Shown here: positions 9,104 through 45,500 of the stretch, in pieces
How the letters are laid out: each line of letters begins with the position of its first letter
How positions within the stretch are numbered: position 1 is the first letter of the stretch
Origin: Escherichia phage NHEP1
Direction: 5' to 3' (one strand)
Sequence record: PQ511146.1
DNA length: 64,000 nt
Notes under the pieces: model-generated
Seen by the model: the letters and a program-made list of their open reading frames with translations, nothing else
What the model was told of the DNA's origin: nothing
Databases searched by the model: none
Translations under genes and position numbers: made by a program

Positions 9104-9384
9104 AAATGAGTGCTAAGGACAAGTTGCACCAGTTAGCGCTAAAACGTCCTGTAACTCTCCCTGACGAGCTTAACTCCATTTATGATGCGATTGTAGGGGA
9201 GATACAAAATAAGGCGTTAGCAGGCTTTCTGGGATGCGGATTTTCGATAAATCTTCCATCACACCTCTCAGACTACTTCCCACACATCGTTGGGGATTTG
9301 AGGGCAGGAGGTCTGCAGGTGGATGTTGTTGGCATCTCCCCGGAGAAAAATAACACAGTTGCCTACTTGACAGTGACCTGGTAG
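9100..9384 (+). CDS. Hypothetical protein
   Basis: ATGA start/stop overlap with preceding gene; start moved to ATG 9100. Confidence 0.5.
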   Translation: MKMSAKDKLHQLALKRPVTLPDELNSIYDAIVGEIQNKALAGFLGCGFSINLPSHLSDYFPHIVGDLRAGGLQVDVVGISPEKNNTVAYLTVTW

Positions 9385-10327: not shown

Positions 10328-10869
10328 CAGGTATGCTTCTGATTAACTGGGAAGACCTCTATGGGGACAAAGACCCTGTTGCGTTTGTTGATCGTAGGTG
10401 GAGATACACTGAAGAACAACTGGCTGCAAAAAATTTAACTGCAAAACGCAGAAAGATCATCCAGTGCAAGTACAAATACGCACAGTTTGCTGCAAAAGTG
10501 TCTCCACAAATCGAGAGTTTTGTACTTAAATTGTATGACGAGTACCTCAAATTCAAATTGGATTTTGTACAGGTATACCGTGCACAGGTACGTCCAGATA
10601 CCAACATCTGTAGATGGAAGGTTGTTTGTGATGGTAAAGATTTGCCGCTCAGTTTGACAATTGAGTGGCGTTGGGGGTATCATGAGTGCGGTTTGTGTGA
10701 TATTTGGGATGTCATTGTAGATCCTGCTAAGTACCTGAACACAGAGGAGCTGGAATATATCAATAAGGTTATTCTAGATATGTTTTTCAGCTACACCCGT
10801 GAAAACTCTGAGAAAGAACGGGATAATTTTCTTGACACCCTCGGCAACCACCTGCAGTGTACAATTTAA
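10324..10869 (+). CDS. Hypothetical protein
   Basis: Track ORF 181 aa. Confidence 0.55.
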   Translation: MTGMLLINWEDLYGDKDPVAFVDRRWRYTEEQLAAKNLTAKRRKIIQCKYKYAQFAAKVSPQIESFVLKLYDEYLKFKLDFVQVYRAQVRPDTNICRWKVVCDGKDLPLSLTIEWRWGYHECGLCDIWDVIVDPAKYLNTEELEYINKVILDMFFSYTRENSEKERDNFLDTLGNHLQCTI

Positions 10870-16105: not shown

Positions 16106-16438
16106 ATGAAAGTACGCTTTATTGGTGAAACAATTCCTGTGCATCTCCGGTCTCCTGAAGACTCTGCAGATCTTGCATCTCAAAAGGCGAGAGGGTATGA
16201 TAAGAAAGTGATCTCAAGCAATGTAGAGCTTGAGGCCACCAGTCTACCTGACCCAGCTGCATTCTTCAATCATTATGGCTACTATTTTAGCAATCTGATG
16301 AATATTGGTGAGCTTGTGTTTATTAGTGGTGGAGAGATAGTTAGCAAGCTTGGTGGAGATCCGGATATCTTTCATGAAACCTGCCCTTTTGCATTTGTGG
16401 TGGGTTCAGATGTGGAAGTTATTGAGGAGGTTCGGTAA
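16106..16438 (+). CDS. Small acidic protein, paralog family A-like
   Basis: ATG 16106 (MKVRF) after GGGGTGAG; C-terminal VEVIEEVR. Confidence 0.5.
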   Translation: MKVRFIGETIPVHLRSPEDSADLASQKARGYDKKVISSNVELEATSLPDPAAFFNHYGYYFSNLMNIGELVFISGGEIVSKLGGDPDIFHETCPFAFVVGSDVEVIEEVR

Positions 16439-16833
16439 TGGTAAGTCTATACCGTGTTGAGTATAGCTCGGATACTGTATACAATGTAAGAAGCAAAGAT
16501 CGCAGTGACAGAGTGCAAGAAATGTATGTTCTTGCAGACAGTCCGTTATCTGCAGCGTTCAAGGCAGGAGCTCTTGCATCTCGTTGGAAATTTGAGGGTG
16601 GATCTTTCTATGAAGAAACCCTTGAAGATTCTGTTGTTATTTCTTCTGTAGAGGTTTCAACCGACTACGAAGGGAAAAAGTTCGTAATGCGGCACCCACA
16701 CAGCAACATTGCGTACTACTGGGATGTTCTGAACAATGAGTGGACCCCTGATCTTCAGAAGGCCACTGTTCTAACCCCATTCCTGGCAGATAAGTTTCCA
16801 CCAGAAGGTAATTTATCTGCACTGTTTCAGTAA
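16438..16833 (+). CDS. Hypothetical protein, paralog family B
   Basis: Similar to 14233..14631 over C-terminal half. Confidence 0.55.
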   Translation: MVSLYRVEYSSDTVYNVRSKDRSDRVQEMYVLADSPLSAAFKAGALASRWKFEGGSFYEETLEDSVVISSVEVSTDYEGKKFVMRHPHSNIAYYWDVLNNEWTPDLQKATVLTPFLADKFPPEGNLSALFQ

Positions 16834-16842
16834 TTTTATGCC

Positions 16843-16880
16843 ACACAGGTGTTGACAACACCAACCCTGTGTGCAATAAT
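16843..16880 (+). promoter_or_regulatory. Promoter TTGACA-N17-AATAAT embedded in a 12-bp-arm palindrome
   Basis: CACACAGGTGTTG...CAACCCTGTGTG inverted repeat overlapping the -35. Confidence 0.4.
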
Positions 16881-16912
16881 ACCTTCATCTTAACAAGATA
16901 GGAGACCGATTG

Positions 16913-17170
16913 ATGAAGATTAAATTGAAAAACCTTGAAACGGCAGAGATTCAGGAAGGTATTGATTTCCGTTCTAAAGATGGAGACATCCTGGAGGCGA
17001 ATGTCCCGACATATAAGTTGATTAAAGGTTTTGGCAACGTTCCGGAGGAGGATATTACAGACATTCTTATGATGTTGATCCTTGACGGGACTGTGTTTGT
17101 AGGTGAAGGTGAGAACGCTATTGCAATCCCGAGCCATTTTTATGAAGTAGTTGACGAAGAGGTGCTGTAA
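16913..17170 (+). CDS. Small acidic protein (C-terminal YEVVDEEVL)
   Basis: ATG 16913 after AGGAG RBS. Confidence 0.5.
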   Translation: MKIKLKNLETAEIQEGIDFRSKDGDILEANVPTYKLIKGFGNVPEEDITDILMMLILDGTVFVGEGENAIAIPSHFYEVVDEEVL

Positions 17171-18925: not shown

Positions 18926-19231
18926 ATGGCTAAATCTAAAGTTGAACTGTTCACCTCTCTGCCTTCTGACATTGCAGAGCGTGATCGCCTCCGTAAAACA
19001 ATTGAAGAGCTGGTGGAACTTCAGCTTCAGATTAAAGATCTGAAAGATGCTATCAAAGATATTATTCTTGTCGAGAAGCAGGATCACTTGTATTCTCCTA
19101 AGTTTATCAAGTCATTGGTGGCTACCGAGTTCGATATCCGCTACGAAGCTGAAAAACGTCGAGCTAAAATCGAAGAGGAGGTTGAGCACATGTCTGAAGC
19201 AGACATTCTGTTCAAACGCTCTGCAGAATAA
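18926..19231 (+). CDS. Hypothetical coiled-coil-like protein
   Basis: Track ORF 101 aa; AAGGAG RBS. Confidence 0.5.
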   Translation: MAKSKVELFTSLPSDIAERDRLRKTIEELVELQLQIKDLKDAIKDIILVEKQDHLYSPKFIKSLVATEFDIRYEAEKRRAKIEEEVEHMSEADILFKRSAE

Positions 19232-19235
19232 TGAC

Positions 19236-19262
19236 AAAGAGGGGTCTTGGCCCCTCTTTTTA
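19236..19262 (+). terminator. Rho-independent terminator
   Basis: AGAGGGGTC-TTGG-CCCCTCT followed by TTTTT. Confidence 0.6.
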
Positions 19263-20763: not shown

Positions 20764-23270
20764 CACACAAGTCTGCTTTGCAGGTTTAGCTGCTCAGCTA
20801 AGGTTCTGGAGGCACCTATAACATCTTCCAACTAAATTTCCTACCAACACAGTTACTTACCTACCACACATGACTGTTTGCTTGTTTAGTGAGCAGTCAT
20901 CACTTGACATTCTTGCCTATCTTGATAAAATTAAGTTCTTCTCTTTTCTTTTACCGAGTAATTCGGGTTTTCTGTTCTCTTCGGTTTGAAGGGGTATGGA
21001 GATACACCTGAGTGAACAGGGTGAACAACCGAACCTTTAGCTATGGCATTAGCATGGCGAAGCGGACGGGTGACGAAAGAGGGGCCGGAGGACACCAGTC
21101 ACTGCCATATAGTATATGGGTGATAACCTGAAGAGTCTGAATAAGTGTTTAAGTACCAGTCAGAGGAAAAGGTGAATGGTAGCCGAAGGGGGAGGGGGGT
21201 TTCTTATATCTTTAATTTGTATACTTTATATACACTTGTAAACCAATTCAATTAGAATCTGTTTACCACACAAAGGGGATGGAGACAAATATCACCTATT
21301 AAACTTGAATTATTTATAGAAAATACCACAACACCCGTTAAGTCTTTGATTTTACACACAAATCTTACAAATATCCTACCTCCACATTTAACATACTTGT
21401 AACATATTCCATATCCTACCTGCCTGATCAATTTACTCCATCACATTCCCACATTTTCCCTGTCTGTACTACCCCACCCCCGCCGGGAGTCCCGTCATAT
21501 CTGGCTTTCCAGCAAATATCACACCAACAAATATCATCACCTGAAGAGGGTTTCATCCCATAATACCTGCCTTACCTGAAGAGCGCTTCATACACCACGT
21601 AAATTTTTTAATTGACCCCTCCCCGCCGCCAGAGAGGTTGGCTTTTCCCACACAGGCCTGAAGAGTCAGCCAGAAATATCTGAACAGGCAGTTATGTCCC
21701 GATTTTGTGCTTGTCCTACAGGAGTGCTGCCAGGCGGACGGAATGGGAATACTTCTCATTCTTATAATAATTCTCAAATATCGAGGCAGTGAGGCAAATT
21801 AATAGGCCAGGCCGTTCACACAGTGGCACAACATTTGCAATCTATCTTGTGTGGATGAATGAGAATACCTATCATTGTGAGAATGGTTATCATTACGGGC
21901 AATTTAACATAATACCCATTATGCGCACCACTGGCGATACATACAGGGATTGATAACATGGGTTACTGTTTACGCATATAACAATTATATTTCTTACTAT
22001 TTGTGTGGGATATAGTTAGCAACCAATAGATTAGATATTGACCTGCAGACTTCTGACCGTCCAGACGTCTAAACGCCCACACAACAAGGATTATACATAC
22101 ACTCCTGCATGTAACCAGGGCCGCAAAAATGCTACCATACCAGTTTGTAAATTTTTCATGCAGCACTTGACAAAGAGGAGAAAAACTTGTCTGACACAAT
22201 GTGACAATTTTGTCACTTTTGACACTTTTACCTTTGACACAATATGACACAATAACGGCTGTTACTATTCCATATCTCACTGTTTACGCCTGAATAGTTT
22301 ACGCAAAAACTGTTTACACAGAGATGATAAGCCATGCCATTCGTTTGCATGAAAACAATTAACAAGATAACAATTGACAAGCTAACAGCCAACAAGCTGA
22401 CAGTTAATAAGTTAATAAGTTATGACATAATATAAAAGCAGGGCAACTATTAGAAGATCTATAGTTGCCTTGCTTGTTATGTCATGATTAACTAAATACA
22501 AGGCAACTATGATCTGAATAATAGATTGCAGACAAACTATCACGGGGGTGATTGTTACTGCTTTTATATTATGTCGCGACTCCGTCGCGCCATGCCATTC
22601 GTTTGCATAGTTGCCTTATTGTTACAGGTAAAACAATTACATTATTAATTATTTCTTATCTTTCTCTTAGTCATCTAATGATTCCAGTCAGTATAGTAAT
22701 GTACAGTAAACATTAGACGACTAAATATTTCTCTGTGTATAATAACTTATCGTGACAATTTCGAACTGTTTACGAAAAATGTTGACACCTGAGCTGATTT
22801 ATGTTATGCAGTTTACACGAATAATTATTTTATGCAGGTATTGACTATTCCGTTATTCTGTGGTTGGAATAAATACTTTGCAGACTATAGAATGGCGTGC
22901 GTACGTGAATTCTGAGATCTGGCGGCTATAGTTATACTCGATTTTTCGCGTAGAACACGCTTTCGATGCTGTGTAAGTGTATGACTTATAAAGATTTTTA
23001 GTTGTTGACAAGATATTGGAGATGTGCATCAGGTTAAAATTTGTGCAATAGCGGCATTACGTGCACTTTTGGGAGAGAAAACGGGTAAAAATGGCCCTGC
23101 TACCACACAATGAAAGATTATGCAATAGTTATTTTCCATGTATATTTGTACAGTATGTGGGATTGATGGCTAGTCAATTATTCCACTTGCCAGGTAGGGC
23201 CGTTTATGGTAGGAGAAGAGCAGACAAAAAGAAAGGGGCCTTTAAGCCCCTTGATAATTCAGTTAAGAAA
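20764..23270. repeat. ORF-poor, repeat-dense non-coding zone at the convergence of plus and minus transcription blocks
   Basis: No convincing ORF of 100 aa or more; at least five short repeat families seen (see findings). Confidence 0.6.
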
Positions 23271-23690: not shown

Positions 23691-23834
23691 GGTGTTTTTA
23701 CCTCTTAGTTAATTTTCTTACAACTTCCCTTCAAAAAAGAATATAGCAAAACTGCCGATCCCTGTCAACAAGGGATAGCATAATTTTTATGTGATCAAGG
23801 GGCTTTATCGCCCCTGACCATGCAACCTGTTGTA

Positions 23835-24588: not shown

Positions 24589-24639
24589 GAAATAAGCATA
24601 ACAAAAAACAGGACAAAAACAAGCCCTGTTTTGTAAAGA

Positions 24640-24843
24640 TTAGATGATCTGCATATCCTCCACGATAATTTCTAATTTCCAAATAAGATGATCTAAGCTC
24701 CCTGATAAAAATGATTCCGATACATAACCGCCATCGGATACCGTAGCAAGGATCTCGCCATTTGCTTGCTCTTTGATTTGAACATCCAGGCGGTTAGCCT
24801 TTGCTTTATTCAGGACGGCGATCAGGCGGTTAGCTGTAGTCAT
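24640..24843 (-). CDS. Hypothetical protein
   Basis: Track ORF 67 aa. Confidence 0.45.
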   Translation of the reverse strand: MTTANRLIAVLNKAKANRLDVQIKEQANGEILATVSDGGYVSESFLSGSLDHLIWKLEIIVEDMQII

Positions 24844-24927
24844 GGTGTTTTCCTTCCAGTTGTGAGCGGCACTATTGCCGCCCTACGTGATACATCTTAC
24901 ACTATCCGGCACATCATGCAAGCTATT

Positions 24928-25119
24928 TTATACTTCCTCACCTATAAAGTCGGATCTATTCTTCTCCGTCATGCGTTTAAGTAGTTCTTGCATGTTGCTG
25001 ATAGCTTGCAATGTATCTTCTTCCAGGCTTGAATCAAGATAATCAGGATCATTCTTCACCTTGCTATGATTGTGATACCGCAACGCTGCTAATACCTTTC
25101 TAACTTGTTCTGCATTCAT
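24928..25119 (-). CDS. Hypothetical protein
   Basis: Track ORF 63 aa. Confidence 0.45.
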   Translation of the reverse strand: MNAEQVRKVLAALRYHNHSKVKNDPDYLDSSLEEDTLQAISNMQELLKRMTEKNRSDFIGEEV

Positions 25120-25131
25120 TTTTATTACTCC

Positions 25132-25344
25132 TTAAAACCAGGTGCCAACCGTTTCCAATAGGTCACTGACTACCAGAACAACACCGATTAGCACATATTT
25201 AATCAGGAAGGGGATTAGCGCCAGCGCCGCTACTATGATCCCCATTGTCATGATTATTTTTCTCATGGTTAACGGTTCACGTAAGTTTTTTTTTCCCATC
25301 TTCTGATCCTCTGTTAGCATACGATAGCGATCACGCCGCCACAA
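25132..25344 (-). CDS. Small membrane protein
   Basis: Two hydrophobic segments. Confidence 0.45.
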   Translation of the reverse strand: MWRRDRYRMLTEDQKMGKKNLREPLTMRKIIMTMGIIVAALALIPFLIKYVLIGVVLVVSDLLETVGTWF

Positions 25345-25577
25345 ATAGAAGGTAAATCAAAACGGTCTAACTTGCAAGCTATTTTTAAACGAAAGGCAAC
25401 ATAAAAGAAAATTTGCAAACAATCGATCATTGTGTTAGCTGTTGAAACGCTGCCAGCATTAAACACCACCCCGCCCACGGCGTTAAACGTTGCGTTACTC
25501 ACGAAAGCGGAAAGGCAAGCGATCACGGTGGCGATCATAATGTTGCGTTTTGTCAATCTGTAGATGATGTTTTTCAT
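25314..25577 (-). CDS. Hypothetical membrane-like protein
   Basis: Start moved to ATG (MKNIIY) downstream of the promoter and GGCGGCAGCATTGCCGCC hairpin that the longer track ORF reads through. Confidence 0.45.
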   Translation of the reverse strand: MKNIIYRLTKRNIMIATVIACLSAFVSNATFNAVGGVVFNAGSVSTANTMIDCLQIFFYVAFRLKIACKLDRFDLPSICGGVIAIVC

Positions 25578-25646
25578 TCTGTCATGTTGGCGGCAGCATT
25601 GCCGCCCTACGAAATACATTCTACCCGATTTGTAATTGTTGTCAAA

Positions 25647-25916
25647 CTAATTTTTCAAGCTCGACCAGTCAAAACACGGCGGGATCTCGTTAAAACTTGT
25701 GCCCTGTAAAGCACATAATTTTTTAGCAATAGCCGCCGTGACCTGGCGCTGTACGCGCGGATCTGCTACTGATTGGAGAAAGTAGGCGGCTTTATACGTG
25801 ATCATGCTTTCGCCTGTTTCCTTGCTAACATGATGCACTATTTTAGCCTTATCATCTTTTACCAGGGTGTAACCGGATTCGATGGCCTTGATTGCAACGT
25901 CCAATGATATTTTCAT
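25647..25916 (-). CDS. Hypothetical protein
   Basis: Track ORF 89 aa. Confidence 0.5.
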   Translation of the reverse strand: MKISLDVAIKAIESGYTLVKDDKAKIVHHVSKETGESMITYKAAYFLQSVADPRVQRQVTAAIAKKLCALQGTSFNEIPPCFDWSSLKN

Positions 25917-25963
25917 GATTTATCTCTTTATTGATGGCGGGGAATACTCCCCCGCCTTATTAA

Positions 25964-26134
25964 TTACTCTTCATCGTCGCCGTTATAGTATTCAATGCCG
26001 TTTTCATCGGTTACGGTAATATTAACGCCACCGATAGCAACACGATCACGGGCAAACGTCATGGCTTCATTTAAATCTTCAGACCAAAAAATATTGTGAC
26101 CTTTGCGCGATACGTAAAACATAGTCGGGATCAT
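25964..26134 (-). CDS. Small ORF (56 aa)
   Basis: Not in track; ATG preceded by promoter plus GC-clamp hairpin cassette; translation MIPTMFYVSRKGHNIFWSEDLNEAMTFARDRVAIGGVNITVTDENGIEYYNGDDEE. Confidence 0.4.
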   Translation of the reverse strand: MIPTMFYVSRKGHNIFWSEDLNEAMTFARDRVAIGGVNITVTDENGIEYYNGDDEE

Positions 26135-26216
26135 GATTTGTTTCTCTTTTGTTGTGAGCGGGAAACCATTTCCCGCCCTATGTGATACATCTTAAACTAA
26201 TTTAAAACGTTGTCAA
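26135..26216 (-). promoter_or_regulatory. Promoter (TTGACA-N16-TAAGAT) followed by GC-clamp 5'UTR stem-loop (PeSL-like cassette)
   Basis: Minus-strand hexamers map to plus 26211-26216 and 26189-26194; hairpin GAGCGGGAAACCATTTCCCGCCC at 26156-26178. Confidence 0.5.
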
Positions 26217-27672: not shown

Positions 27673-27716
27673 TACTCCTTTTTTGCACTGATTATTTTAA
27701 CAGGGTTTAAATTTAC

Positions 27717-27756
27717 TTTATTGATGGCCCTGGAATCAAGGCCATCTAAAAATAAA
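27717..27756. repeat. Conserved 40-bp hairpin cassette TTTATTGATGGCCCTG..CAAGGCCATCTAAAAATAAA (copy 1 of 3)
   Basis: Near-identical copies at 31423-31462 and 32045-32084. Confidence 0.6.
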
Positions 27757-27758
27757 TT

Positions 27759-27959
27759 TTACAGGCCTACAATCTCTTTAATTCGTTTTACTGCTGCCTC
27801 AGCGCCTTGAGGGTAAAAATTATGGTAACCAATCACGCGAGTGATACTAATCGCCGTTTGATGATCTTCATAATCACCTTTAAAGATTTCTTGACCGTCA
27901 ATCAGCACGGCAATTTTTTCTTCTTTTTTGAAGTTAATAACGCGGATATTGTTGCTCAT
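27759..27959 (-). CDS. Hypothetical protein
   Basis: Track ORF 66 aa; promoter, GGGGAGCAATCCCC hairpin and AAAGGAG RBS upstream. Confidence 0.5.
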   Translation of the reverse strand: MSNNIRVINFKKEEKIAVLIDGQEIFKGDYEDHQTAISITRVIGYHNFYPQGAEAAVKRIKEIVGL

Positions 27960-29962: not shown

Positions 29963-30048
29963 GATATTTTCTCCTGTTTTCTTTGTTAGTGGCGGGAAGT
30001 TTTCCCGCCTGCGTGTTTAATTATACTTATTGGGATTTACTTGTCAAC
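29963..30048 (-). promoter_or_regulatory. Promoter (TTGACA-N16-TATAAT) followed by 5'UTR stem-loop GGCGGGAAGTTTTCCCGCC (PeSL-like cassette)
   Basis: Minus-strand hexamers map to plus 30042-30047 and 30020-30025; hairpin at 29991-30009. Confidence 0.55.
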
Positions 30049-31075: not shown

Positions 31076-31131
31076 GGTGTTAATAAATTATCTTTATAGA
31101 TGGCCCTGCAACCAGGACCACCGAAAAATAA

Positions 31132-31377
31132 CTATTTCACAATGCCTACAAAACAGATCCCGCCTTCACCTATGTAAGCAATATCGGTCACTTTGTAGTC
31201 GGTTAAGATCTGTTTATTCAGATCATTAATAAAATCGGTCATTGCGTTGGTGTAGTTGTCTTCTGTATCTAAGGCATAATCCCAGGTGTAAACCTTTTTA
31301 CGTCCGAAGCCTTTTACCATGATACGGGCGCTTTTGGTGTTAGTAGGGGCATAATACTTGGTGATTAGTGCTGCCAT
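31132..31377 (-). CDS. Hypothetical protein
   Basis: Track ORF 81 aa; GAGGAG RBS. Confidence 0.5.
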   Translation of the reverse strand: MAALITKYYAPTNTKSARIMVKGFGRKKVYTWDYALDTEDNYTNAMTDFINDLNKQILTDYKVTDIAYIGEGGICFVGIVK

Positions 31378-31422
31378 GGTTTTAACTCCTCATTAGTTCA
31401 GTGTTAACAGTGTAAAGTTTAC

Positions 31423-31462
31423 TTTATTGATGGCCCTGAAGTCAAGGCCATCTAAAAATAAA
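31423..31462. repeat. Conserved 40-bp hairpin cassette (copy 2) carrying a minus-strand TTGACT -35 in its loop
   Basis: Minus strand reads TTGACT-N18-TAAACT upstream of gene 31132..31377. Confidence 0.55.
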
Positions 31463-31464
31463 TT

Positions 31465-31806
31465 TTACTCGTTTTCTTCCAGCTTTGAAAGCTCTTCTTT
31501 CACTTCTTCAAGCTCTGTCTGCAATTCTTGGTATTCTTCGTCGTCCTCAATATCCAGGCTGTCGATGTAGTCGCTAAATCCGCAGCGGTAAGCGATAGGA
31601 TCTAACTCCTTGAGGATACGCGACGGAAGAAAAGAAATGCTTCCGATCATAATTTCGCCGTAGATCTCGTCTAACCATTCATCATAGTTTTCGTCGTACT
31701 TGTCCTCGTCGATTTCAAAGTTATCGATCTTGTTCTCAAGGTCTGCGATCTGTTTTTTCAGCGCGGCGATCTGCATAGCTTTTTCTGCGGCGGTCATAGT
31801 AGTCAT
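31465..31806 (-). CDS. Acidic coiled-coil-like hypothetical protein
   Basis: Track ORF 113 aa. Confidence 0.5.
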   Translation of the reverse strand: MTTMTAAEKAMQIAALKKQIADLENKIDNFEIDEDKYDENYDEWLDEIYGEIMIGSISFLPSRILKELDPIAYRCGFSDYIDSLDIEDDEEYQELQTELEEVKEELSKLEENE

Positions 31807-32044
31807 GGTGTTTTCTCCTTTTGTGTATTCTGGGAAGTTTTCCCGTTTACGTGTTTAAGTATATCAATCTAAGTTAGCTTGTCAATTAAAAATTTAAGAA
31901 AAATTTTGCAAAACTGTTAGCGCTACTCATTAACATTTGCGCCAGGATGTAACCGACAACGCAAACGATAATAGTTACCTTTGTGTATTGGCGTGTAGTG
32001 CTCATCTTAAAGCCCCCTTTTTCGCTTAGTTGAGACTAGTTTAC

Positions 32045-32084
32045 TTTATTGATGGCCCTGGAGTCAAGGCCATCTAAAAATAAA
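32045..32084. repeat. Conserved 40-bp hairpin cassette (copy 3)
   Basis: Same sequence family as 27717 and 31423. Confidence 0.55.
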
Positions 32085-32085
32085 C

Positions 32086-32490
32086 TTAATAAGTTTTCAG
32101 TACTTTACCGTCCAACCTGTCAAGCTGGATCTCAATAGCTGCAGAAAACCTATTGTACACCACGTCGCCCATGGAATCCAACCAGTCTATGACGTTATAC
32201 ACCTGCTCTTTGTTCTTGCAGGTCCGGATCCGTTTCATGATGTAAGCCGGATCAATATTGGTACTTTCGTTGGTGTTCCCCTGTACCTGATTTGCCGTAT
32301 TAGTTACATCTTTAATGGCCTTTACCACCACCTGGAAGGGCTTTAAGGTGCCTTTTGCGTTCATCTCACGCACTTTTGCGGCGCGGTTGTTATAGGTTAC
32401 ACAACGGCGGCAAATGTTCACTAAGTGCATGTCAATAATTTTTTCATCGTTTGCCAGTTCGTTCATGATGCGGCGTACGTTCTTATTCAT
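32086..32490 (-). CDS. Hypothetical protein
   Basis: Track ORF 134 aa. Confidence 0.5.
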   Translation of the reverse strand: MNKNVRRIMNELANDEKIIDMHLVNICRRCVTYNNRAAKVREMNAKGTLKPFQVVVKAIKDVTNTANQVQGNTNESTNIDPAYIMKRIRTCKNKEQVYNVIDWLDSMGDVVYNRFSAAIEIQLDRLDGKVLKTY

Positions 32491-40685: not shown

Positions 40686-41002
40686 GCTTCCTCGTCATCT
40701 AATGGGTTGAAGATTTCACCGAAGTATTCTAAGACTTCCAGCTCACGGGTGGTGCAGAAAACACAGTCCCCGTTGTCATCTTCGATAACGGCCTCTTTAC
40801 CAAGAACATCAACTTCAAATTCGTCGTTTAACAGAACGGAACCTGTGTAAACTTTATCTGCCGTGCAGTCCCGAAAAGCAGAGTCCTTCTCCAAGTAGTC
40901 TGGCTTAACCTTGGCTTTAATTCGTTGATATTGTTTGGTCATTGCTGTGGTCCCCTTTCGTTTTGATAGGGCCATTATATTAGGCCCTATCGCTATTGTC
41001 AA
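40682..41002 (-). CDS. Hypothetical protein (paralog of 41006..41260)
   Basis: Shared AF(R/K)DCT and DD(N/E)GD.V(F/W)CT motifs. Confidence 0.5.
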   Translation of the reverse strand: MTIAIGPNIMALSKRKGTTAMTKQYQRIKAKVKPDYLEKDSAFRDCTADKVYTGSVLLNDEFEVDVLGKEAVIEDDNGDCVFCTTRELEVLEYFGEIFNPLDDEEA

Positions 41003-41005
41003 GTA

Positions 41006-41260
41006 TTAATGCTCAGGTTTTACAAAAACTACTTCGTTAACAGTGCACCAGACAGAATCCCCTTCATCATCTTTAAAGGTAAGACACTGGGCCGAGTTTT
41101 CCAACTCATCAAGTTCTTCTTGTGATAAATAGGTCCCTTCTTCCAGAAGGGCTTTTACCAGAGGGTTCTCACAAAACTCTGCTTCATAAATTGCACCGAG
41201 TGTGCAATCTTTAAAAGCTCGGTCATTTGCAACGCATTCTGGCTTCAAAGTAATTTTCAT
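41006..41260 (-). CDS. Hypothetical protein (paralog of 40682..41002)
   Basis: Shared motifs with the upstream neighbour. Confidence 0.5.
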   Translation of the reverse strand: MKITLKPECVANDRAFKDCTLGAIYEAEFCENPLVKALLEEGTYLSQEELDELENSAQCLTFKDDEGDSVWCTVNEVVFVKPEH

Positions 41261-42136: not shown

Positions 42137-42507
42137 TGATCTGCCTCCTTCTTGTTGAGCCGGAACACTGCAATAATAGCATTTCCAAGATGCAGTGTCA
42201 AATCATTTCCCAGATACCATAACATTCCACGGTCATCTTTAATGAAAGGGTAACAATCCGGTGCCTTCCAGACATTATACACTTTGCCGACCTGAAAGAA
42301 ATCAGGCCCTGTTGGAATTTTAGTACCGGGCCATACTTGGGACACCTGAACGCATTCTACCTGCATAATGACAGGGATAGTCATGGAGGTAAATGTTTTT
42401 GTTGGTTCTACTACCATAAAAGTCTCCTCTCTGTCTAACAACACTTCCGTGTGTTGATAGTTTACATTAGTGACAATCACCCCAGTTACGACCGCACAAG
42501 TATTCAC
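42133..42507 (-). CDS. Small protein, DDxGxxW(F/Y)L paralog family
   Basis: KDDRGMLWYLGNDLTLHLG. Confidence 0.5.
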   Translation of the reverse strand: MNTCAVVTGVIVTNVNYQHTEVLLDREETFMVVEPTKTFTSMTIPVIMQVECVQVSQVWPGTKIPTGPDFFQVGKVYNVWKAPDCYPFIKDDRGMLWYLGNDLTLHLGNAIIAVFRLNKKEADQ

Positions 42508-45500
42508 CTGTGATCTGGAACGGAACGCCCATCATTTTAGAAGCCTGCCAGAAGCAATGCACCACCATTTCGCCCACAGGGCTCCAGATAAGCTCAAGCT
42601 TTCCGTCATCATTCAAGATAGGATCGTATACCGTATTTCCATCCTTGTCAACCACTTCGTTTCCGTCCTCATCTTTGCGTGCCTTTTTGTACTTATGACC
42701 GTCGAACACATGAAGTTTAGCCTCTTGTTGGGCTTTAAATGTTTCCAGCTCTTCAATTGTGTCGAAGGTGTATACGGTTTTATACTTAGGTGTGTCAGGC
42801 ACTTGAAGCTGATATTCGTCATGGTAATAGATAATACGACGAACACCCTCATCATACCATCCACGCTTCACCATCTGGTGGTGCATGAGGATTCCGACCA
42901 AGTCGCACAACGATGCACCGCCATTTTGCTGATATGCATTAAGCAAAGAGTGTTTAGAGCGGGTCCAAATGGCATGCCCGTCAAAAGAGTAGATAAATTT
43001 CTTACCTGTTGCTTCCCAGAATTTCTCCAGATCCTCTTTACGCCCCTTAAGGCCCGGGTTGGCATCCCAGAGAGCATCAATTACTCTCTGTCCAAGTTCT
43101 GGAGAGATATCTAGCATATCTGCAACTTTATCTTTTTGTGCCCCGTACATAACCCCATATGTGACAGGCTTACCATCGTTACGGGAAATCTCCTTGCCTG
43201 CTACAGAAGAGTAAGCTTTGGCGTTATTACAGTTACCGCACACTGCCACTTTACCATTCCTTCTCACAATGATTGCTCCAGAAGGGACGGTAACGCAATA
43301 AACCAAAGAACCGCTCACCTCGACAGACTCTTTAGATAGTGTCAGCAACCCTGCTCTCTGTTTGCTACCAATCGTGATTCTGTGCTGTACGGAACGACCT
43401 TTTTTGTGAATCGCCACCGTATTATTCCGTAAACCACACTGAGTAGCCAGCGCAGACACAACCTCTACAGATTTCTTCCTGCACCCGGCCTGAGAGTAGT
43501 AGGCAACTTTTCCACCTTCGGAAGATACCCACCCGTCCCAGTTAGATAAAGAAGCTATAAACAGGTTTTTAGATTCTTTATCAAGGTCCATCAGGTTGTA
43601 GGTGAAATCCTTATTGCTGTCCAAAAACTCAAATACCCAGGACGGAACGTGGAATTGGAACCTTCTCGCCAGTAAGCCCCCTTTTGTGGTTTTCCCGCTC
43701 TGCTCTACATAACTAAGGCTTAGAGCAGAAAAAGTATCTAAAAGCGTTGCAACTTTTCTGCCCTTCCCGACCTGAATCCTGCACACGATGCTGCCGTCCT
43801 TATTTGTATGCAAGTGCCCATCATCGTGAATAGCAATAAGCAAATTAACCTGGGCAGGAGATAAGGTTGTATTCCCATAAAACTCTGCCGCATGGATAAA
43901 CCTTCTTCCTGAATTAGACCCTTTACCTGCTTTCAGGTCTTTTGCCAAATCTTCAAACAATTTATTGCTTCTGTGATCCACGGTCAGCATCCTGTGTTGA
44001 TCTGTAACCATAAAATCCACACTGCTGTTGTGGAAATGATACATATCCCCACAATAACTACGCTTAACGTAATTTAATGGAGTAACAAGGTTCATCGACG
44101 AGGTGTTGTGATCGTACTGGAACACCTGTGTTCCCGGATCAAGATCTTCAAACCTCACCCACCCTTTCTCCGTGAGAATTTGTGTATCTCCTGAATAACA
44201 GTGTGCATCGCCGTTACTTACAACATCATAATACAGACCGTTGTCAAACTCAAAGGCACCCCAGGCCCCGATGAGCTGCTCTAAGTTGGACCCGTCAATA
44301 CCGATCTCAAAGTATCCTGGAGGAACACCCCACAGACTACGCATCTCTTTACCCATAACCACTTTAGGAGATGGTTTAGGCATGTTTGCACAAATACTAT
44401 GTTTCTGTCTGGAAGTGTTTGTTAATCCAGAACTTTTAGCAGGAAGCTTGTGGTCAATCTTCAAACGTGGATGATTAAGAAGACCAGTATCAACCTTATC
44501 TTCCTTGATTGGATCAAGGACCGATCTGCGGTTTCGCAATGATAACCACAAAACGATATCTTTAGCCATCTCTCCGTTCAATTTTTCAAGATTCGGGCAC
44601 AGGTGTCCAAACGTATCTTTCAGTTGCGGAGAAGTAATAAGCGCTCTGGCTTTTCTACGTATCTTCCCAAACACTTCCTTTTTAATCCTTTCTGAGTTAG
44701 GGAAGCTTCGGAACTTATGCACAGTTGTCTGGAACTTGGCATCAGTTTTGTTCCAGAAGTTGATAATTAGATCACAATACTCTGACTCCAAAAGCTCGTC
44801 CATATATGCATATACTCGTGCATCAACATCTGCATCAGGTAAAGCTTTCTTCTTGCTGTCTTTAGTTACATCTTTAGTTCTCCACATTGTTGGGAGCCAA
44901 CCAGCACTGATCAGGTATCGCTTGATGTCGTCCTGATTGCTGATTTTCATAGGTATCTTGCAGTCAGGCATTCGCTTCTGCTGTAGGTCACTTATCGCCT
45001 GATCCATCAGCTCTTTAGGTAAAGGGTGTGGTGTAGAAGTTCCTTTGATATACCCCCTCAAGAAATCAGCCATCTTATCGGGGTCTTTACAGCCCATCTC
45101 TTCACACCATTTTATCCCCATCTTACTTACATCCCCTGTGGAGGTAAATGCTCGCTTAGGAGGAGCTTTGAACTCTAAAGCACTCATGTCCACAGGGTAG
45201 CCAAGCTTGTCTTTTAACCATTTCCAACCATTATTGGAGATTGTCCCATCTTGGTTAAACGGCTTTTCAGGGAACTTAGGCCGCTGAGACATTGATAACT
45301 CTTTTAAAGGAAGTTGTGGTTCAACACGATCAGCGATCTCTTTCATCCACGCATCGCAACGGTCACGTAAAGCAATAGCCCCATCTATGTCGAAATACAC
45401 CCCCTGTCGAGCCTGCAGCTCCATCAGGAAGTGCTGTAACATGCCTCGGCGTAATGCGTTCTTCCAGGTGATCTTCTTGAAGCCTTTCGGCTTCTCTTTG

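Follow-up and report, generated by a model that had tools for sequence, protein, structure and literature searches.

We analysed a 64,000-nt stretch of the genome of Escherichia phage NHEP1 (sequence record PQ511146.1; hereafter, the window), with attention to one intergenic gap of 79 nt in an array of co-directional ORFans. By sequence comparison, the window belongs to a Vequintavirus genome of the rV5/FV3 type. The 3 kb surrounding the gap were matched by 118 records, all of them Vequintavirus (rV5-like), with 99.2% identity to Escherichia phage vB_EcoM-ECP26 and 92–98% to most of the others. The coordinates of phage FV3 parallel those of the window nearly base for base to ~20 kb, and the rV5 equivalent of the window begins at 82,780, passes the genome end and stops at 9,256. 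Both genes flanking the gap were confined to Vequintavirus, where they were found in 118 phage records, three IMG/VR contigs and five metagenome contigs. The upstream gene product, a homologue of rV5 gp144, showed at least 97% amino acid identity across 118 of 118 Vequintavirus records, whereas the downstream gp145 homologue was much more variable (53–99%). The gp145 homologue heads a co-directional block that ends at a terminator at ~19236–19259. The gap itself consists of the gp144 stop (ending at 16833), 8 nt, a hairpin over the -35 box and the spacer of a promoter, the -10 box, a Shine-Dalgarno (SD) sequence and the ATG (Table 1).

Table 1. Features in and around the gp144–gp145 intergenic gap (positions refer to the window).
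Feature	Position	Strand	Remarks
Upstream promoter, rV5 P144	14946–14974	+	Transcripts would run into the hairpin
Upstream gene, homologue of rV5 gp144/ORF149, phrog_7379, function unknown	16438–16833	+	Stop codon TAA at 16831–16833
Hypervariable pentamer between the gp144 stop and the conserved element	16838–16842	+	5/5 columns variable
Left arm of the hairpin: outer CACACAGG (16842–16849), bulged T16850, inner GTTG (16851–16854)	16842–16854	+	Ends in TTG of the -35
Sigma-70-type promoter P150: TTGACA (16852–16857), N17, TGc, AATAAT (16875–16880)	16852–16880	+
Loop of the hairpin, ACAACAC	16855–16861	+	Includes ACA from the -35; position 16860 is commonly polymorphic (A/G)
Right arm of the hairpin, CAAC and CCTGTGTG	16862–16873	+	Wholly in the promoter spacer; last 4 nt, TGTG, are the extended -10
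Initial transcribed region and 5' UTR	16881–16898	+	0/18 columns variable in the 18-sequence set
SD AGGAGA (16900–16905) and downstream gene (ATG at 16913), homologue of rV5 gp145/ORF150, phrog_12359	16900–17170	+

The original prediction had placed a TTGACA-N17-AATAAT promoter upstream of the gene that starts at 16913, and this was confirmed. P150 matched the sigma-70 hexamer consensus at 11 of 12 positions and carried TG at -15/-14; the extended -10 (TGTG, 16870–16873) agrees with the TRTG motif. The ATG begins 32 nt past the end of the -10, with AGGAGA in between. From the usual distance of ~7 nt past the -10, transcription would start near A16887. The promoter is not new, as the same site is annotated in the rV5 RefSeq record NC_011041 ('Sigma70-type promoter; P150', 100027–100055), and the record of phage Gotham has a PhagePromoter prediction at the P150 site. 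The rV5 paper reported 33 promoters, which are in silico predictions, 11 of them with an extended -10, and did not mention palindromes (PMC3606486). The searchable literature yielded no description of a hairpin overlapping P150 and no transcriptome of any Vequintavirus. A terminator scan detected no terminator-like site from P144 (14946), the promoter upstream, to the start of the hairpin at 16842, so the read-through RNA from P144 should contain the hairpin.

The inverted repeat spans 16842–16873 and reads CACACAGG-T-GTTG-ACAACAC-CAAC-CCTGTGTG. Its arms of 13 and 12 nt pair over eight uninterrupted positions, then the single T16850 bulges out and four more pairs follow, giving a 12-bp stem with seven G-C pairs and a 7-nt loop. 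In an ungapped alignment of the arms, only the outer 8 bp pair. The palindrome had been predicted to begin at 16843, with 12-bp arms and one mismatch. It begins one base earlier, and the twelve pairs do form, but the irregularity is an indel, the bulged T16850, and no mismatch is present. A second, perfect 7-1-7 palindrome, GGTGTTG-A-CAACACC (16848–16862), with the -35 at its centre, overlaps the hairpin; it partly comes free because TTGACAA is self-complementary.

The RNA fold had a minimum free energy (MFE) of -18.5 kcal/mol, with a z-score of -3.38 and none of 200 shuffles as stable. The corresponding DNA fold reached -11.2 kcal/mol with z of -4.19. Among 44-nt windows, the element ranked in the top 0.09% of the + strand and approximately 20th to 35th when both strands were counted. 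One alternative is that the hairpin has no separate function, that is, a chance palindrome lies in a strongly constrained promoter and 5' UTR, with its arms conserved together with the whole 56 nt from 16843 to 16898. The shuffle z-scores, -3.4 to -4.2, count against chance, whereas 8-bp inverted repeats are abundant (267 pairs within 40 nt across the window), which speaks for it. As a class test, we compared the 25 sigma-70 promoters that the rV5 record annotates, a set not selected by us, with random genome windows. These promoters were not enriched for structure (mean z -0.37 vs -0.28 in random windows, Mann-Whitney P = 0.88), and the hairpin as a general property of the phage promoters was rejected on these z-scores. 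Only two of the 25, P76 and P150, had z ≤ -3.3, compared to 3% of random windows (P ~0.17), so that structure alone is only suggestive, not decisive, of a hairpin that is more than chance. At the gathering threshold, Rfam had no match anywhere in the window, and what it gave close to the hairpin was only noise.

Conservation was assessed in the intergenic sequences of ~20 of the 118 phage records, three IMG/VR contigs and five metagenome contigs; column variability was counted in 18 sequences, with the third-codon positions of both flanking genes as background. Within 16843–16873, two of 31 columns were variable, compared to 41–42% at third-codon positions (P = 2e-5); the palindrome is conserved. 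The longer stretch, 16843–16898, had three variable columns of 56 in the 18 sequences, and with the exception of phiWec189 it differed at no more than three positions in any of the 118 records. The right arm was unchanged in all sequences read, which were those of the window, the loci of relatives and the contigs from metagenomes. This conservation adds weight to the view that the hairpin is more than chance. At the same time, the non-palindromic stretch 16881–16898 was equally invariant, its sole variant being C>T at 16893 in C15 and navn, and the constraint is therefore not confined to the arms.

The pentamer at 16838–16842 has an invariant TTTT on one side and the hairpin arm, likewise invariant, on the other; it had seven alleles (ATGCC, ATTCT, ATCCC, CTTGC, ATGAC, ATACC and CCGGC) in ~24 near-identical relatives. 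It could be an unconstrained spacer, or a hotspot of mutation or recombination at the base of the stem.

Six of the ten unpaired non-consensus positions were polymorphic, compared to three of 21 paired ones (Fisher P = 0.015, post hoc). Two of the 17 positions of the P150 spacer varied, whereas the spacers of the hairpin-less P144, P118 and P121 each had at least six variable positions in the same genomes. Moreover, ACACAGGTG of the left arm lies upstream of the -35 and does not resemble an UP element, and it was nearly invariant beside the pentamer that varies in all five columns. In favour of chance, the TRTG extended -10 accounts for 4 nt of the right arm and the -35 for 3 nt of the left, and compensatory change was absent at P150. 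Three left-arm variants were observed: C16842T (FV3), C16846T (contig Ga0129313) and G16851A (phiWec189). The two outer-stem variants give U.G pairs on the sense strand and would be A.C on the antisense strand; G16851A disrupts the inner stem. We found no covariation in the ~20 phage records, three IMG/VR contigs and five metagenome contigs; with flanking genes confined to the genus and nearly invariant arms, the P150 hairpin offers none to test. Considering also the compensatory changes in the sister hairpins described below, chance seems a somewhat unlikely explanation of the whole pattern, and a serious one.

The original prediction took the arrangement to be an operator overlapping the promoter. 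In such a model, a dimeric DNA-binding protein of the phage or the host would occupy the duplex dyad and block polymerase at the -35 and extended -10, keeping P150 off at some stage. A conserved dyad that spans the -35 and the extended -10 fits this; an operator would also give conserved arms with a variable loop position (16860) and variable flanks, and the inner 7-1-7 palindrome has the size of a classic operator. The genomic distribution argues against it. The dyad occurs once in the 137,947-bp rV5 genome, none of its 6-nt half-sites lies at the other 24 annotated promoters, and the window holds no second copy with up to three mismatches; a shared operator motif was thus rejected, with neither half-sites at other promoters nor a second dyad. 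The geometry is also awkward, as the 8-bp arms are 24 bp apart centre to centre (~2.3 helical turns) and twelve pairs form only with a bulge, tolerable in a folded strand but not for a symmetric dimer on duplex DNA. The common A16860G polymorphism breaks the inner palindrome, and the arm variants are of the sense-strand G.U type.

The search for a cognate protein was likewise negative, with a Pfam DNA-binding domain in none of ten neighbouring proteins (a search of phage proteins restricted to the neighbourhood). The last gene before the terminator, 18926–19228, is labelled 'transcriptional regulator' through phrog_639. Its product gave only a sub-threshold match to GapR (E = 0.04) and has homologues only in close relatives. 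The AlphaFold model has three helices (pLDDT 77), and its structural matches were only generic coiled coils; judged from this model, the protein is a generic coiled coil with no specific match to a DNA-binding fold. The consensus sites of CRP (TGTGA-N6-TCACA) and LexA (CTGT-N8-ACAG) do not seem to match the hairpin in orientation or spacing. At least one GntR-like regulator, rV5 gp75, is encoded elsewhere in this phage group, and its promoter P76 has a palindrome in the spacer, but the P76 arms (GCAGGGA) are unrelated to those of P150. Sister promoter hairpins, moreover, have differing arm sequences with compensatory changes. Operators that lie over promoters, such as lambda OR/PR, LexA boxes and those of P22 Mnt/Arc, share with P150 a strong promoter in which a dyad covers the -35 and reaches over the upstream end of the -10 region. 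Unlike them, the P150 site has one genomic copy, an atypical half-site spacing, an indel in one arm, no cognate protein that we could find and substitutions that fit RNA pairing. We therefore consider an operator at P150 improbable. The original prediction was thus partly supported, being right about the promoter and the palindrome and without support in its operator reading.

Three other promoters in these genomes have comparable hairpins. In P164 (23750–23790 in the window, - strand, -35 at 23768), the -35 is in the loop of a 6–7-bp hairpin whose arms are ATCCCT/AGGGAT in the window and phiWec189, and ATCCTTG/CAAGGAT in rV5 and Murica. This is a compensatory exchange of C-G to T-A, and the surrounding ~100 nt are otherwise nearly invariant. 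The second, at 40965–41006 on the - strand, is a perfect-consensus TTGACA-N17-TATAAT promoter (-35 at 41002), for which the rV5 record has no promoter annotation. A 9-bp inverted repeat, GATAGGGCC...GGCCCTATC, surrounds its -10, and rV5 has the compensatory GATAGGACC...GGTCCTATC; the exchange is from GGGCC/GGCCC to GGACC/GGTCC in rV5, with a G.U variant in FV3. The third is rV5 P76 (65693–65722, outside the window), with the spacer hairpin GCAGGGA-GTAA-TCCCTGC followed by TATTTT, which doubles as the -10 and as a canonical U-tract. The loop of P76 holds the stop codon of the upstream phosphoesterase gene, and in FV3 an A>G change leads to a G.U pair. As P76 drives the gene of the GntR-like putative regulator, an operator role is possible there, and its hairpin may be an autoregulatory operator as well. 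Two further palindromes were rejected as promoter hairpins: that at 10644–10670 is intragenic with no annotated promoter, and that at 42201 (- strand) loses its pairing in rV5. A hairpin was also seen in the 5' UTR of P144 (14975–15010, + strand), where AAAGAGGG...CCCTCTT follows right after the -10; it shows covariation, with AGAGAG...CTCTCT in phiWec189 and a differing loop in Murica.

Taken over P150 and its sisters, the substitutions comprise four wobble-compatible single changes and two compensatory pairs vs one or two disruptive changes, and every wobble pair falls on the sense strand. From the aligned sequences, this pattern suggests pairing of the sense strand, as RNA or as DNA, and not recognition by a protein.

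The closest parallel that we found is the promoter-early stem-loop (PeSL), a type of intergenic cassette in the T4-like phages RB49/phi1, PST and nt-1 (Arbiol et al. 2010, PMC2839356; Comeau et al. 2014, PMC4122927). A PeSL combines a sigma-70 early promoter with a stem-loop that lies between the -35 and -10 or overlaps either box and has terminator/attenuator activity; five positional subclasses relative to the promoter were distinguished, and with the RB49/phi1 stem-loop the fall in downstream lacZ expression was comparable to that caused by a strong terminator (PMC2839356). PeSL cassettes are also recombination points in ORFan shuffling (PMC2839356, PMC4122927). The P150 element resembles them in its near-consensus sigma-70 early promoter with a stable stem-loop over the -35 and spacer, and in being an intergenic cassette bounded by the upstream stop and the downstream SD and ATG. 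It likewise lies in an array of small ORFans and coincides with a boundary of allele replacement (gp144 at least 97%, gp145 down to 53%). In phiWec189, where the gp145 allele is replaced, divergence starts just past the -10, and sites 16860 and 16874 are found in all four allele combinations. Further shared features are E. coli as the host and a phage that lacks its own RNA polymerase.

The differences are also clear. The P150 copy is unique, whereas PeSLs form a repeat family with ~100 bp of similarity between the copies in a genome, and the P150 stem is neither polyG/polyC nor followed by a U-tract. The AT-rich sequence upstream of P150 is limited to the short patch TAATTTTAT (16832–16840), and the 11 nt adjoining the -35 are the GC-rich arm. 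No mention of PeSLs in Vequintavirinae or Vequintavirus was found in the searchable literature. Of the readings considered, a PeSL-like cassette is the likeliest for the P150 element, in a phage group for which that literature reports none.

A canonical intrinsic terminator was rejected for the hairpin, as the G+C-rich 12-bp stem fits but no U-run follows it: the tail, CAAUAAUA, has no U-tract and fails the terminator scan. Murica and rV5 have no terminator annotation at the P150 hairpin, though both annotate terminators elsewhere. The arrangement is otherwise like that of P76, an intrinsic terminator that overlaps the next promoter, with a 3'-end hairpin inside the promoter and the -10 after the stem. 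Unlike at P76, the tail of the P150 hairpin is not a U-run and no relative has a terminator annotated there. A divergent antisense promoter was rejected as well: TTGTCA is present on the bottom strand, but its best partner as a -10, TAAAAT, is just 14 nt off and lies in the hypervariable pentamer.

We propose that P150 is a PeSL-like composite of promoter and stem-loop, that the hairpin acts in the sense read-through RNA, as an attenuator or a 3' stabiliser, and that the cassette marks a mosaic boundary; we hold this proposal tentatively, at a little under an even chance. On duplex DNA, host sigma-70 polymerase would start the gp145-to-gp153 block at TTGACA-N17-TGc-AATAAT. Polymerase coming from P144 would transcribe on through the cassette, and the nascent sense RNA of 16842–16873 would fold into the 12-bp bulged hairpin 8 nt past the gp144 stop. 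There, we infer, it probably attenuates read-through weakly, with the A/U-rich -10 acting as a poor U-tract; alternatively, the hairpin may protect or stabilise the 3' end of the upstream message. P150 would then restart transcription from gp145 onward to the terminator at ~19236–19259, and the conserved 56-nt cassette would serve as a homology patch for the exchange of gene alleles. A hairpin in RNA is supported by the sorting of polymorphism by fold, by the bulge, which suits a hairpin, and by the sister elements, which keep their pairing. Counting against the PeSL-like reading are the lack of covariation at P150 with its nearly invariant arms, the equal conservation of the 5' UTR, the promoter class that is not enriched for structure, the place of P150 outside any repeat family and the inner stem broken by G16851A.

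The fold might instead act in DNA, as a cruciform or single-strand structure that hides the -35 in a supercoiling- or transcription-dependent manner, or as a preferred site of cutting or exchange in recombination. The stability of the DNA fold (-11.2 kcal/mol, z -4.19) agrees with this, as do the four-gamete pattern and the allele-replacement boundary at the element. For extrusion as a cruciform, a perfect 8-bp stem interrupted by 16 nt is short, and so is one of 12 bp that has a bulge and a loop of 7 nt. The C>T variants would become A.C mismatches in the hairpin on the bottom strand of a cruciform, and although PeSL crossovers were mapped in or beside the stem-loop (PMC2839356), recombination requires conserved homology alone and not a fold. 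Promoter function is also tied to a DNA hairpin in the N4 virion-RNAP promoters and the Frpo single-strand promoters of plasmid F. These need the hairpin for recognition by a dedicated polymerase or for rebuilding a duplex -35/-10 on single-stranded DNA. In contrast, the hexamers of P150 are of the ordinary sigma-70 kind, used as duplex DNA, and its -35 would be disrupted, not created, by folding. Altogether, we regard a function at the level of DNA structure as highly unlikely.

If the P150 hairpin works as proposed in RNA, rV5-like phages, which are widely used candidates for O157 biocontrol and therapy, would arrange their early ORFan genes with the compact promoter/stem-loop cassettes of T4-like phages. 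Such a cassette would account for the insulation of neighbouring genes as well as for their exchange between relatives, and would offer a defined part with which early gene expression could be tuned or engineered. An operator would have implied an unknown phage repressor as its cognate protein; with that idea unsupported here, and the promoter already annotated, the practical gain is modest. More broadly, the Vequintaviruses might have structure-selected stem-loops around sigma-70 hexamers (P150, P164, 41002 and P76) which, with the repeated cassettes at 24–33 kb, would form a PeSL-type promoter/attenuator/recombination system outside the T4-like phages. We consider this possible, if rather doubtful; if true, it would suggest that large lytic coliphages in general use such cassettes to insulate and shuffle their ORFan genes.

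The repeated promoter cassettes are on the - strand, at 24861–24905, 25585–25629, 26156–26200, 29994–30047 and 31832–31885. All five carry a hairpin of the GGCGGGAA...TTCCCGCC type ~10 nt past the -10. A 61-nt terminator-like element, TTTATTGATGGCCCTG..CAAGGCCATCTAAAAATAAA, has four copies (27710–27770, 31086–31146, 31416–31476 and 32038–32098) between small - strand genes, with 69–100% identity to the reference copy. In sequence and arrangement, the promoter cassettes and 61-nt terminator repeats of this ORFan-rich region look like a PeSL-style family of repeated cassettes.

Between the convergent blocks of + and - strand genes, ~2.2 kb (20800–23070) are geneless and correspond to the 'non-coding' box of the rV5 paper. 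Seven TGACA(C/A) repeats are clustered there at 22166–22250, followed by two repeats of CTGTTTAC (22279 and 22309). Of all hairpins in the window, the most stable (22436–22475, -24.3 kcal/mol) also lies in this region, as does a third CAAGGCAACTAT copy at 22499. The region may be an origin or a regulatory array. Two segments of the window, 24635–26211 and 43204–44201, are missing from rV5. The latter is in the DNA polymerase region, and in FV3 an annotated HNH endonuclease adjoins the DNA polymerase gene; 43204–44201 may therefore be a homing-endonuclease insertion.
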